Shown here: positions 19,523-64,000 of the stretch, one piece after another
Position numbering within the stretch: position 1 is the stretch's first letter
Layout of the letters: each line of letters opens with the position of its first letter
NCBI GenBank assembly: GCA_964658305.1
Contig: OZ210884.1
Location: 4,774,001-4,838,000, forward strand
From: Leptogorgia sarmentosa
Taxonomy: Eukaryota
DNA length: 64,000 bases
Direction: 5' to 3'
Notes under the pieces: generated by a model
Database searches by the model: none
Told to the model about the DNA's origin: nothing
The model's input: only the letters and a program-made list of their open reading frames with translations
Program-made: the position numbers and the translations under genes

Positions 19523-19577
19523 ATGTCGACGTTTCTAGTCGTCATGTTTGCTGGGCTCATTTCTCTGAGCTGCGCAA
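19523..19577 (+). CDS. Signal-peptide exon ([18 protein letters not shown])
   Basis: ATG followed by a hydrophobic core and S-C-A cleavage context. Donor A|gtaaga is phase 1 and fits the next exon at 20056. Confidence 0.75.
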
Positions 19578-61500: not shown

Positions 61501-64000
61501 TTACACGCCACTACTATTGTAGTACATTGTGGGAAAGTTTTTGTATATTTTGGCTTATTATACAATTTAAAGGCAAAAAGATTGCGCTGTCTATGCAATG
61601 TTTTCCCACATGTTGAAATCTTCAAGTAGTTTGTTTCAATCACGAAAAATACTTGAGGGCGAGAAAATTTACTGTCTCCGACTCTTCGTGTTAAACTTGT
61701 TCAATGCGGTACCAAGATTATTGTCCGCAACCTTGAATAATTATCACAACTTGGAACAACAAGTGCAAAGACCTAATTCGTGATCGAAAATTTTATTCCC
61801 TTTTCAAACATTTACGTATCTAATGTGTGAAGTATTTTTTTAGCATGCAAATATACAATTCATTACTGTTAGCGAGTACGAGTATAGTTTACGAGTTGGC
61901 GGCAAATGATCGCATTTTCAATGGTTTACTACAAAATAGGTTATAGAAGAATTATCCAATAAGTTTTCCTTTTCTTCCCTTGTAAGAGTATTAGGATGAA
62001 TATTTGTGTTAATGTGGTAAGGATTTTCGTGCATTTCTGAATTATTTTTTTTAATACACGGAATTTTAAATACAACCACTTCATTCATCATATACAACGG
62101 TTTCTATACATAAATTATACCTTCTCTAAACATTGCGTGGTGCAATATCACACCTCAACCGTCACGATACCAGTTTATTACTCCTTCACAAAATCGCCAT
62201 GTTTAAATTTTGACGAAGATTTATAATTATTAATTTTACTAGGTGTCAATATTACTGGGAGTCAAAATACATGGATAACAAGTGATTATGGTGTCACTGT
62301 GAAGTGGAACAATGTTTACAATGTGCGAGTGACAGTTAGAGGTCGTTATATCAACCGAACAGCTGGTTTATGTGGCACTTATAACGACAATGAAGATGAC
62401 GACTTCTGGACACCTCATGGTAGAAATGCAGCTGACCCGGTAGAATTTGGAAATTCTTGGAAAGTTGATCCTGAGTGTGACAACGCAACTTTTGTAGAAC
62501 ATCCATGTGACGTCGACGAAGAGAGAAGAGCGATAGCACGAGCCAACTGTTCCAGGTTACTCAGTCCTCCTTTCAGTGACTGTTCAAGCTATATAAATGC
62601 TACTGAAGAAGGATATATCGAGGACTGTGAGTATGATATGTGTGCTTGCGAAGATGATCCTGTTGTTTGCTATTGTCAAGCGCTCGAAGCTTACTCTGGA
62701 GATTGTGCTTCCTTTGTTGATATTGAGTGGGAGAATTTGCAAGAATTTGATGTTTGTGGTAAGTTTGTGTTTTGCATTTAGTCCACGCGTTTTGAAATGT
62801 CTACCAAGATTGAGGTCAATTGCAATTTGCAAACCACCTATCCCCTAATAAAACACATTACACACTGTACTATAGCTGTCACATCCCACTCGGAGTAACC
62901 ACCTAGATCTAATATTCTTTTGTAAGATTTCACTGTTGTTGGAAGTCATCCGCTTTTCAACCCTCTCCTATCCTTCAATACACAACTAATCACAATACTC
63001 ACTGAACTTCTATATGCCTCACAGAAACGCCATGTGCGAGTGCTCCTTGTTATAATGGCGGAACTTGTAGCAACGTTGGTGATTCGTTTGAATGCAAATG
63101 TCCCGCAAGATTCCTGGGAGATAGATGTGAAATTGAAGGTAACAGGAAAGTTGATAATATGATTAATTTAATAATGCATAAATATATGTTGCTTAAGGCT
63201 GACTTCCATCAAATCGCTATTAGCCTTTAAGAACAGCTATTCCTACTGAAAACTTATTTATCACGCGTTCTCCGATTCTAGTTTCTGCCTTATGAAAGTT
63301 CATAAAATTTTTCCAAACATCTAGCTACTAGCGAAAAGGACATTTTTCTTTCACAATCGTTCGTGTCTTATTTAATTTAAGCTTTCTTCTTACAATCGAT
63401 CATGTGATGACTGTCGCGCGAATTTAAAATTCCATTTACAACATTCGCGTAAATAATACAAAATTCGAAATTATTTAGGGACCGCTCATTATTTATGGCA
63501 GGGGTGGGGGCTGAAAATAGTGACTGGGGTGGGGTAAAGTATAATATGAGAAGGATATATGGGTGGAATAAAAATAACAATGTTTACCACTCGCTTATTT
63601 ACCAAGTATTACTTGCCATATACACATTACATATTTTAAAATTCAATGACGAAAAATGGAATCTCACTTGTTGTTATATAATTGCAAGGTTCATAAAAAT
63701 TGGGGGGAAAATTGTTCGCCTTGTTTTAAAAAATGGGGTCAAACGAAGGTGGGGTAAGAAAAAGTTTTGACTTTGAAACATTTTCTTTTCAGGCCCCACC
63801 CCTGACATAAATAATGACTGGTCCCTAATACTGGTTATTGATTTTCTTGCCAGATCGTTGCCAGATACCGTACGTATACTTTTCGGGAGCGTCAAACGTC
63901 CAGTCATATAACGCAGACAATTCCTCAGAGCGAACAACAATCGTCGTTAACCGTCCAGATGCCCTGTTATCGTTTGACGCTGTAAACAAACGGCTGTATA
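19523..64000 (+). CDS. Giant secreted modular protein (YWTD-like beta-propeller / EGF / VWD-C8 repeats; FCGBP/zonadhesin/mucin-like), 3' end beyond the window
   Basis: 66 exons joined by eye into one open frame (~15.9 kb CDS, ~5,290 aa). Architecture: SP-Prop-EGFx3-Prop-EGFx6-VWD/C8-EGF-[Prop-EGFx3-VWD/C8-EGFx2-VWD/C8-EGF]x4-Prop... All introns are phase 1 except the mid-propeller introns (phase 2). No stop or frameshift seen. Confidence 0.9.
20056..21098 (+). CDS. Beta-propeller 1 (exons 20056-20434, 20716-21098)
   Basis: LDLR class B/YWTD-like blades: [42 protein letters not shown]. Confidence 0.8.
21384..22424 (+). CDS. Three Ca-binding EGF exons (21384-21500, 21919-22044, 22305-22424)
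   Basis: D(L/I)DEC...C..CxN..G.(Y/F).CxC..G(Y/F).GNG..C pattern; phase 1-1 exons. Confidence 0.85.
22799..22949. mobile_element. 151-bp MITE with perfect 23-bp TIRs and 6-bp TSD
   Basis: GAAAAT|GGGTTATATTTTCATGTTACGCA ... TGCGTAACATGAAAATATAACCC|GAAAAT; internal CCTAACCCT-like repeats. Confidence 0.85.
23101..24478 (+). CDS. Beta-propeller 2 (exons 23101-23482, 24102-24478)
   Basis: [41 protein letters not shown]; same exon split and phase as propeller 1. Confidence 0.82.
24628..24705 (+). repeat. Intronic partial duplicate of propeller-2 exon segment (24334-24411)
   Basis: Encodes [26 protein letters not shown] versus the exonic [26 protein letters not shown]. Confidence 0.85.
24828..27656 (+). 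CDS. Six EGF exons (24828-24947, 25598-25720, 26366-26485, 26847-26969, 27290-27412, 27543-27656)
   Basis: Six-Cys EGF patterns, mostly with Ca-EGF DIDEC starts; all phase 1-1. Confidence 0.85.
28359..30465 (+). CDS. First VWD-C8 assembly (28359-28628, 29115-29633) plus EGF (30349-30465)
   Basis: [46 protein letters not shown]8 pattern C.YDMC.C...CLC. Confidence 0.9.
29659..29860. mobile_element. PIF/Harbinger-type MITE
   Basis: GGCCCGTTTACAC ... GTGTGAACGAGCC with long imperfect inverted arms; same family as 57389-57579. Confidence 0.75.
30632..30855. mobile_element. MITE with CCCTTA..TAAGGG termini, 2-bp AC TSD, filled with CACATGTG repeats (CMC/EnSpm-like)
   Basis: AC|CCCTTATGAAAA ... 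TTTTCGTAAGGG|AC; 10 perfect CACATGTG plus about 5 variants. Confidence 0.75.
31100..38271 (+). CDS. Super-repeat unit 1 (12 exons, ~1016 aa)
   Basis: Exons 31100-31484, 31984-32354 (propeller); 32984-33103, 33763-33879, 34317-34430 (EGF); 34970-35239, 35548-36078 (VWD-C8 A); 36467-36583, 36698-36811 (EGF); 36975-37244, 37516-38040 (VWD-C8 B); 38158-38271 (EGF). Confidence 0.88.
33595..33656. repeat. Perfect 31-bp tandem duplication
   Basis: GTGATTTGGCCGCATATAATATAATATAAGC x2. Confidence 0.9.
38529..46681 (+). CDS. Super-repeat unit 2 (12 exons, ~1014 aa)
   Basis: Exons 38529-38913, 39641-40005; 40480-40599, 41205-41321, 41698-41808; 42460-42729, 42821-43351; 43479-43595, 44065-44178; 44362-44631, 45763-46287; 46565-46681. 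Confidence 0.88.
40125..40355 (-). mobile_element. Diverged, inverted copy of the Tc1/mariner MITE at 7712-7944
   Basis: TA|CAGGATGTCCCAAA start. Internal atcagctcttttgttgttaaacgtgcgttgttatacc matches the reverse complement of about 7878-7914. Confidence 0.7.
44966..45175. mobile_element. hAT-type MITE with G/C homopolymer tracts
   Basis: TCATTAGC|CAGTGGCG ... CGCCACAG|TCATTAGT: 8-bp TSD (7/8 match) and CAG/CAGTGGCG-type termini. Confidence 0.75.
47208..54716 (+). CDS. Super-repeat unit 3 (12 exons, ~1014 aa)
   Basis: Exons 47208-47595, 47991-48361; 48447-48566, 48834-48950, 49685-49795; 49991-50254, 50956-51486; 51748-51864, 52133-52246; 52483-52752, 53643-54164; 54600-54716. Confidence 0.88.
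49215..49452. mobile_element. MITE (PIF/Harbinger-like)
   Basis: TIRs GGCTGCTTTCCAGTTA / TAACTGGAAAGCAGCC with acgtacg-rich subterminal arms. Confidence 0.75.
54827..63138 (+). CDS. Super-repeat unit 4 (12 exons, ~1009 aa)
   Basis: Exons 54827-55211, 55646-56010; 56607-56726, 56970-57089, 57799-57912; 58550-58813, 59098-59628; 59779-59892, 60438-60551; 61087-61356, 62243-62758; 63025-63138. Confidence 0.88.
57389..57579. mobile_element. PIF/Harbinger-type MITE with TAA TSD
   Basis: TAA|GGCTCGTTTACA ... TGTAAACGGGCC|TAA. Confidence 0.82.
58030..58512. mobile_element. Non-autonomous element with long terminal hairpin and asymmetric inverted repeats
   Basis: Hairpin ~58040-58180 (gtactgtgaaatatcagacc.../...ggtctgatatttcacagtac); inverted repeat TATTATATGGCT (58187-58198) / AGCCATATAATA (58501-58512); CCAATCAGA at 58476. 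Confidence 0.7.
60100..60262 (+). mobile_element. Degenerate SINE remnant
   Basis: agggtttttctttggatactccggatttccttc resembles the conserved GGGTTTTCTCCGGGTACTCCGGTTTCCTCC SINE core seen in many aquatic animals (recalled, not searched). Confidence 0.35.
63478..63825. mobile_element. PIF/Harbinger-like MITE
   Basis: TTA|GGGACCGCTCATTATTTATGGCAGGGGTGGGG ... CCCCACCCCTGACATAAATAATGACTGGTCCC|TAA. Confidence 0.8.
63854..64000 (+). CDS. Start of super-repeat unit 5 (propeller 7, truncated by window edge)
   Basis: gccag|ATCGTTGC gives [12 protein letters not shown]...[12 protein letters not shown], paralogous to the exons at 38529, 47208 and 54827. Confidence 0.85.

Follow-up and report, generated by a model that had tools for sequence, protein, structure and literature searches.

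A giant spliced gene of an octocoral predicted to alternate LDL-receptor-type propellers with EGF and VWD-C8 modules

A 64,000-nt stretch of the Leptogorgia sarmentosa genome (contig OZ210884.1 of assembly GCA_964658305.1, positions 4,774,001 to 4,838,000 of the forward strand), referred to here as the window, carries a long series of exons that encode propeller, EGF and VWD-C8 modules. Do these exons belong to one gene, and is its product a secreted scaffold or a receptor? We find that they most likely form one spliced gene. For the product we favor, with a probability of about 0.5, a membrane-tethered, glycosylated and acidic rod that would cleave itself at its GDPH motifs and display a set of different propellers, either in a surface coat or as a scavenging or adhesion receptor.

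Six-frame translation gives short coding segments on the + strand from 19.5 kb to the window edge. Splice sites picked by hand from this translation yield a 66-exon gene model at 19,523–64,000, with 15,874 nt and 5,291 codons without a stop; 65 exons are complete and the last is cut by the window edge. All 66 exons are preceded by AG, and the donor is GT in 64 of 65 cases. The single GC-AG intron follows 22,044, within the propeller 1-EGF stretch. Intron lengths range from 85 to 1,131 nt (median 434). All modules start and end in intron phase 1 and can therefore be duplicated or dropped with the frame kept. The ATG exon has a splice acceptor in front, which places an untranslated exon further upstream; the contig that covers this exon carries 100 extra letters in front of it, from outside the compared stretch.

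The exons comprise one for the signal peptide, seven first-half and six second-half propeller exons, 34 EGF exons and 9+9 VWD/C8 exons. Their order is signal peptide; propeller 1 and three EGFs; propeller 2 and six EGFs; a VWD-C8 assembly and one EGF; four 12-exon units; and the start of propeller 7 (Table 1). Each unit has the exon order Pa Pb E E E V1 V2 E E V1 V2 E, which in unit 1 reads propeller 3, three EGFs, VWD-C8 type A, two EGFs, VWD-C8 type B and one EGF. The four complete units are 1,016, 1,014, 1,014 and 1,009 aa long and 69–81% identical to each other in pairwise comparison, and a fifth starts at 63,854. The part seen amounts to 578 kDa with an isoelectric point of 4.2 and 119 N-glycosylation sequons. 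An initial annotation of this locus, made by a model from the letters alone, had described a signal peptide, about 34 EGF modules, nine VWD-C8 assemblies, a 12-exon unit repeated at least four times with a propeller in every repeat, and a chain of more than 5,200 aa still open at the window edge. The exon model bears out each of these statements.

Table 1. Features of the giant gene in the window (positions of the window).
Feature	Position	Strand	Evidence
ATG and signal-peptide exon (aa 1-18)	19523..19577	+	splice acceptor in front; contig X12 record 7
Propeller 1 (two exons, aa 19-272) and 3 EGF exons	20056..22424	+	contig joints 20434/20716, 21098/21384
Propeller 2 (aa 394-646) and 6 EGF exons	23101..27656	+	contig joints 23482/24102, 24478/24828, 24947/25598, 26969/27290
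First, divergent VWD-C8 (GDPH) and EGF (aa 888-1189)	28359..30465	+	Pfam VWD, C8; contig X9 record 19 spans
Unit 1, 12 exons (aa 1190-2205), propeller 3	31100..38271	+	internal contig joints; 38271/38529 into unit 2
Unit 2 (aa 2206-3219), propeller 4	38529..46681	+	contig evidence for first exon only
Unit 3 (aa 3220-4233), propeller 5	47208..54716	+	splicing predicted
Unit 4 (aa 4234-5242), propeller 6	54827..63138	+	splicing predicted
Propeller 7 start (fifth unit), open at window edge	63854..64000	+	exon model

The repeats might instead belong to several tandem genes, represent a duplicate in decay or result from an error of assembly. Splicing was checked against contigs of four runs (two studies; type unrecorded, none recorded as RNA) over 19,300–39,200. 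The contigs skip sequence at GT..AG boundaries, and 11 of the 15 listed joints equal introns of the model (31 further joints are not listed). A 2,564-nt contig carries pieces of 26,845–32,353 in order, with gaps equal to the intervening exons of the model, and runs from the N-terminal EGFs through the first VWD into unit 1. Another contig runs without a mismatch from the final exon of unit 1 into the opening exon of unit 2. The four joints that disagree with the model comprise one in an intronic repeat and three with short sides; we read the latter as misplaced pieces of other units, skipping of the exon at 36,698–36,811 being an alternative. Higher-depth variant letters in the VWD exons mostly equal other units of the window and are therefore no evidence of a paralogue.

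No contig covers the whole gene, the joints extend only to 39,200, similar units can collapse in contigs, and the public gene models of homologues are split, all of which leaves some room for separate genes. Yet a single signal peptide heads 66 in-phase exons without a stop, and the contigs link the N-terminal EGFs and first VWD to unit 1 and unit 1 to unit 2. Two Dendronephthya gene models, P0133 (1,850 aa) and P0134 (2,120 aa), also read through several units. Moreover, an alignable stretch between units is present at just three of 11 intron positions, so the units are not assembly copies. We therefore consider separate units very unlikely and keep the single-gene reading, as the initial annotation had it.

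Two observations concern propeller 2. Contigs of run X8 (24342–25658) include a second spliced propeller 2-EGF-EGF transcript with mismatches at 9 of 135 letters and at 7 of 119; as propeller 2 is single-copy in the window, its source is either a paralogue or an allele that has diverged. Within the intron that follows propeller 2 (~24628–24706), about 80 nt are a decayed duplicate of part of the preceding exon (~24335–24413).

The EGF exons were readily recognized by Pfam, with 8/8 of those scanned passing the curated cut-off. None of 12 propeller half-exons matched Ldl_recept_b, two of the 12 gave a sub-threshold match to DUF5050, and the two exons of propeller 1 matched no Pfam family at E<=0.05. 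Since Pfam misses the half-exons, the propeller call rests on profile matches to LRP6 and LRP2 in the PDB and on the fold of a homologue. Profiles of the propeller halves matched LRP6 with E 3.6e-9 and LRP2 with E 5.2e-36, the latter summed over many weak stretches. The fold was predicted for Paramuricea P0005, which is 68% identical to propeller 3, with the half-exons of the window used as alignment. The model is nearly all beta (predicted local distance difference test, pLDDT, 90.8; predicted template modeling score, pTM, 0.87). In a search of 48,161 chains it matched ApoER2 best (Z 26.2, root mean square deviation 2.7, 245 residues aligned), followed by nidogen (25.8) and LRP4 (25.0), and lower down LDLR (23.4), TolB (23.2) and Kelch (21.5). 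The propellers are thus, as modeled, six-bladed and of the LDL-receptor type with an eroded motif. Every propeller has one YWxN/S and none a literal YWTD. The at least seven YWTD-type propellers of the initial annotation come down to six complete ones and a partial seventh, and the "YWTD" does not stand in its literal form. The eroded motif also means that domain-architecture searches miss the propeller-VWD hybrid.

The N-terminus that follows the signal peptide groups with the propellers, and propeller 1 shares 70–78% identity with its counterparts in gene models from Dendronephthya and Paramuricea. A Cys opens every propeller except the first and is accompanied by a seventh Cys in the EGF that follows (14/14 listed, in three species); the extra EGF Cys is absent after first propellers (4/4). 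This pairing, read from the sequences and seen in no structure model, suggests a disulfide clamp between the first strand of the propeller and the next EGF. A calcium-binding pattern of our own making fits 14 of the 34 EGFs.

All six VWD/C8 exons scanned with Pfam passed the curated cut-off. The VWD-C8 profile matched FCGBP best in the PDB (E 5.8e-117), with strong profile and fold matches to VWF, MUC2, MUC5AC and MUC5B. GDPHY is found nine times on the + strand, never on the - strand and never in 20 shuffles; GDPH is present in all nine VWDs, each with both bridging Cys kept. The first VWD-C8 is only 51–56% identical to the eight others. The exon after each C8 is a six-Cys EGF, and Pfam found no TIL match in the 26 window exons or the six homologues scanned, in keeping with the earlier suggestion that EGF takes the place of TIL. 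FCGBP is cut at all GDPH sites in the endoplasmic reticulum and its fragments are held by one disulfide, according to passages of PMC8267560. A VWD-C8 pair without TIL is sufficient for self-cleavage, and cleavage raises protease resistance, as described in part of PMC10880436; GDPH cleavage with tethering disulfides is therefore, by analogy, likely in this gene.

Two further possibilities at the cleavage site were considered and rejected. Covalent cross-linking through an Asp anhydride was set aside by analogy, as the relevant passages of PMC8267560 report that no cross-link of FCGBP to other proteins was seen. In the first exons of the VWDs (28359–61356) the motif reads RGDPH in six of nine cases, in which cleavage would leave a C-terminal RGD, and KGD or TGD in the others. 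A role of ARGD|PH as an integrin site was rejected because most Dendronephthya copies are without it.

Could the protein polymerize covalently through disulfides, as VWF and the gel-forming mucins do? Its nine VWD-C8 assemblies match those proteins strongly, which speaks for it, and the C-terminus beyond the window could carry a dimerizing domain; the C-terminal cystine knot of those proteins would lie there too. The cysteines point the other way. Each of the nine assemblies has 16 Cys, with the pattern CxxDxCxC-x-CxC, and none has CGLCG, a TIL/E or the extra D3-type Cys that is found in the third assembly of both mucin-2 models examined. In mucin-2 this extra Cys forms the intermolecular bond of the polymer. 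The odd Cys of each non-first propeller is paired in number by the seventh Cys of the next EGF, and the sole unmatched Cys, in propeller 1, is a Ser in three homologues. With the Cys balanced within modules, the part seen offers no handle for a covalent polymer. We regard such a polymer as most improbable, and the initial annotation's term "polymer", taken in the mucin/VWF sense, is not supported.

The units do not evolve evenly along their length. Protein identity between units is 82–98% in the VWD-C8 exons and 34–67% in the propeller exons, and most introns are unalignable. Synonymous divergence (dS) between units is 0.09–0.33 in VWD-C8 versus 1.5 to saturated in the propellers and EGF1-3. 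In type A VWDs, 55 informative sites fall into eight partner-switching runs, and none of 20,000 permutations was as extreme; no such mosaic pattern emerged for type B VWDs (8 runs of 18, p 0.77). The trees carry long-branch warnings on deep joins; in them the propellers cluster by position across species (support 99–100/98–100). The four type B C8 regions of the window fall together in a clade (99/98) distinct from those of other species, and type A is less resolved (81/78). Because VWD-C8 combines low dS with mosaicism, and the propellers are conserved by position and saturated at silent sites, we read the pattern as gene conversion that is confined to exons and acts on an interchangeable spacer, the propellers probably being kept distinct by purifying selection. 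This makes the repeat a clear within-gene case of concerted evolution that acts on some exons and leaves neighboring exons out.

Concerted evolution of the VWD exons is also what might be expected of an egg-coat or a gamete or self-recognition receptor like abalone VERL or sea-urchin EBR1. Parts of PMC9275260 cite VERL and EBR for concerted evolution and describe the tandem, Asp-Pro-cleaved VWDs of zonadhesin as serving egg binding. The propellers of the window do not fit this idea. In units 2-4 their nonsynonymous divergence (dN) is 0.26–0.31 against a dS of 1.8 or more, there is no sign of positive selection, and in most full-length rows they are 61–78% identical to their nearest positional counterparts in other genera, which amounts to no rapid species-specific change. 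A gamete function is thus improbable.

Homologues are found in other octocorals. The propeller profile retrieved 13 proteins among 7,993 candidates, the best seven being gene models of Paramuricea clavata and Dendronephthya gigantea. These species also gave the top three matches of the VWD-C8 profile (among the best 120 of 287 matches). Propeller and VWD occur together in five of 131 proteins, all octocoral, and a cluster look-up added four more; the word searches for homologues covered proteins up to 2,000 aa. Dendronephthya P0003 aligns with aa 75-727 of the window protein (67% identical), Paramuricea P0007 with aa 33-521 (74%), and P0133 collinearly with aa 836-2686 (65%), its modules in matching order. 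Where P0134 and P0133 overlap they are 98% identical; P0134 then goes on into one-VWD and two-VWD units. Homologue P0002 also begins with a hydrophobic leader. The family entries (Dendronephthya XP_028416061, XP_028416063 and XP_028406460/461/465/466; Paramuricea CAB3992803 and CAB4021858-60) are orthologous or closely paralogous fragments with the same module order, none full length, in which some units have one VWD or none. Their automatic names are "pro-EGF-like", "SCO-spondin-like", "IgGFc-binding protein-like" and "fibrillin-like".

Relatives with other layouts were also seen. P0180 (Dendronephthya) and P0001/P0140 (Paramuricea) consist only of Cys-clamped propellers and EGF arrays, without VWD. 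In Paramuricea P0130 a mucin-like Thr/Ser/Pro repeat at aa ~176-260 (80% in 50 aa) separates C8-EGF from more EGFs and resembles a membrane-proximal stalk. P0020, an unnamed protein from ENA, has a signal peptide and two TIL-less VWD-C8-EGF modules followed by F5/8-C domains. The TIL-less VWD-C8-EGF module, which P0020 shares at ~39% identity, is hence not unique to the window gene.

A HMMER search of 1.84 billion representatives gave 3,079 matches, of which none of the best 150 carries VWD; as it missed the known octocoral hybrids too, it is weak evidence on the range of the family. Atlas searches gave only leads under 0.9. We found no description of a propeller-EGF-VWD/C8 protein in a full-text literature search, with most subscription papers outside it and with the Xenia cell markers, two Corallium supplement files and the architecture lists of Lang et al. 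left out. The hybrid is likewise not described in passages of PMC7853314, PMC4948705, PMC9080433, PMC7332420, PMC7533068 and PMC9275260. The initial annotation's remark that the architecture matches no named family agrees with the literature searched. Taken together, we conclude that this is a real, expressed, domain-shuffled octocoral family whose modules are all known and for whose combination no earlier description was found.

That the protein may be anchored in the membrane is suggested by a homologue. The window protein itself has no membrane stretch; its maximum 19-residue hydropathy is 1.87, at residue 1 in the signal peptide. Dendronephthya P0006 is 54–57% identical to window units over ~900 aa. 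Its last modules are VWD-C8 and three EGFs; a helix (hydropathy 3.34) follows, and then a tail of 145 aa that contains 10 Tyr, seven YxxL/I and three paired motifs but no NPxY. P0006 shares a contig with P0002, P0052 and P0134. P0002 stops at "RQEN" and P0006 starts ~28 residues later at the same VWD exon position, as if they were the two parts of one paralogue of about 1,930 aa. The N-terminus of P0002 is 95.7% identical to P0003, the orthologue of the window gene's N-terminus. From the shared contig, the adjoining VWD ends and this N-terminus, the tail would be either that of the giant gene's orthologue or that of a shorter paralogue very close to it. Either way, one family member is, by its predicted sequence, a type I membrane protein. 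Receptors with ITAMs (tyrosine-based activation motifs of immunoreceptors) recruit Syk-type kinases through paired cytoplasmic YxxL/I.

Several points weigh against a membrane-tethered, self-cleaving rod. The 3' end of the window gene lies outside the window, and the evidence for the anchor comes from a single automatic gene model in a different species; the end of that model may be fused or paralogue-specific. The P0006 tail matched only itself among 147 candidates of 255–2,000 aa, which is a weak test. No membrane-type stretch is present in 12 of the 13 octocoral models checked, most of which look truncated, nor in P0180. The tail lacks NPxY, and its paired motifs are 10–11 residues apart; in canonical ITAMs the spacing is 6–8 residues. 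Two of the pairs stem from an internal duplication, so a shuffle test (0/20,000) overstated their significance. Both cleavage and the disulfides are argued from analogy, and a structure model of nearly a whole unit (pLDDT 64.5, pTM 0.38) is too poor for domain packing.

The main rival is a fully secreted scaffold of mucus, adhesive or mesoglea, like FCGBP or Sfp1, which would cleave itself at GDPH, be held together non-covalently through Ca2+ and VWD contacts, and carry the propellers on display. This equals the view of the initial annotation minus covalent polymerization. It agrees with a chain that starts with a signal peptide and shows no membrane helix over 5,291 aa, with FCGBP as the best PDB match of the VWD-C8 profile, with the EGFs that fit the Ca-binding pattern and with relatives such as P0180 that show no anchor. 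Sea star Sfp1 (3,853 aa), which is cut autocatalytically, forms a meshwork (PMC9382459, in part). However, a membrane helix and tail are found in P0006, whose C-terminus alone in the family looks complete, and no PTS (Pro/Thr/Ser) domain is present in the window (maximum 36% in 50 aa). Marker peptides are absent from the supplements of two octocoral skeletal proteomes, as judged by exact strings across species, a weak test that covers skeleton and not mucus. For Corallium rubrum (PMC7853314; 11 of 13 files and a spectra file) 12 marker strings were absent, and the LRP-like entries CR_7 and CR_101 are a protease/Ig/sushi protein and LRP6. In the supplement of Conci et al. (PMC7533068) five of six terms were absent, and the "zonadhesin-like" row has unrelated peptides. 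We hold a fully secreted scaffold to be distinctly possible, at less than even odds.

We favor the membrane-tethered rod, which could work as follows. As a type I membrane protein, the chain would form a rod of EGF and VWD-C8 modules on which seven or more LDL-receptor-type propellers stand away from the cell surface. Each GDPH would self-cleave during secretion, and the ten or more pieces, kept together by one disulfide in each VWD, would form a rod that is protease-resistant and releasable by reduction. A predicted disulfide would clamp the first strand of each propeller to the next EGF. The VWD-C8/EGF part would be an interchangeable spacer, free to be homogenized, and the propellers specific binding heads that presumably bind ligands. 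A membrane helix followed by a YxxL-rich tail would close the chain, and the tail could couple binding to uptake or SH2-type signaling. A more specific picture, tentative and somewhat doubtful, is that of giant megalin-like octocoral receptors in which a self-cleaving, homogenized rod replaces the LDL-A repeats, every position has a conserved propeller of its own, and an ITAM-like tail converts the capture of particles or microbes in the surface coat into uptake and signaling.

How does this protein relate to known systems? Like FCGBP, it has a long tandem series of VWD-C8 assemblies in which almost every one carries GDPH and the bridging disulfide; FCGBP also tops the PDB matches, and homologues bear its name. 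In contrast to FCGBP it has no TIL and no FCGBP N-terminal domain, the place of which is taken by propeller 1, and it has EGF spacers, a propeller in each unit and a probable membrane anchor. With LRP1, LRP2 (megalin), LRP4/5/6, pro-EGF, nidogen G3 and Cueball it shares a six-bladed propeller followed by EGF and giant size, and through P0006 a membrane helix and a tail with Tyr motifs. It differs from these in the lost YWTD signature, the interleaved VWD-C8, the predicted propeller-EGF clamp and, in the homologue, YxxL pairs instead of NPxY. No LDL-A repeats are present among the 66 window exons, all of which are assigned to other modules, or in six homologues.

VWF, MUC2, MUC5AC and MUC5B share the VWD-C8 fold, whereas the window gene lacks TIL/E, the D3-type extra Cys and CGLCG; neither a PTS domain nor VWA was seen in its 5,291 aa. 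Zonadhesin, alpha-tectorin and the MUC4/SUSD2-type coral "mucin-like" protein share Asp-Pro-cleaved VWDs, single or in tandem, and a place at the cell surface or in matrix. Zonadhesin is membrane-anchored. Its order is MAM, mucin and tandem VWD (PMC9275260, in part), unlike the propeller-EGF N-terminus of the window gene, which has no MAM or PTS before the first VWD. Nor is there a NIDO or AMOP before the first VWD as in alpha-tectorin, MUC4 (layout from passages of PMC9080433) and SUSD2; a C-terminal ZP would lie beyond the window. The adhesive sea star proteins Sfp1 and Sfp2 are likewise large secreted-pathway VWD-C8 and EGF proteins that are autocatalytically cut (PMC9382459, in part). P0020 is reminiscent of Sfp1 and has the same spacer module as the window gene. 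The heads of Sfp1/Sfp2 and P0020 are F5/8-C or lectin domains and not propellers, and no F5/8-C is present in the seen part of the window protein. Overall, the protein resembles FCGBP or Sfp1 crossed with an LRP, and departs in defining features from FCGBP, mucins/VWF, zonadhesin and tectorin/MUC4.

The gene thus joins two well-studied toolkits, the D assemblies of mucins and FCGBP and the propellers of LRPs, in one giant protein. Databases hold the family as misnamed fragments, and Pfam cannot see the whole. If it is membrane-anchored with a YxxL tail, it is a candidate link between the coral surface coat and uptake or innate signaling, and a natural test of TIL-less VWD-C8 as a plain spacer.

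Upstream of the gene, the window contains an open stretch of 227 codons at 6069–6749 (+) that is rich in Pro, Gln and Ser and has a coiled-coil-like end (ERM_helical E 0.0096, below the cut-off); it is probably an exon of an upstream gene. A fold-back element of ~1 kb at 8836–9879, with 405-nt inverted arms (95%) and inner 145-nt arms 6 nt apart (96%), looks like a miniature inverted-repeat transposable element or a fold-back transposon. The window also holds a 21-nt minisatellite of 5-6 copies at 4573–4703 and a 99-nt direct repeat (95%) at 282–380 and 1974–2072.

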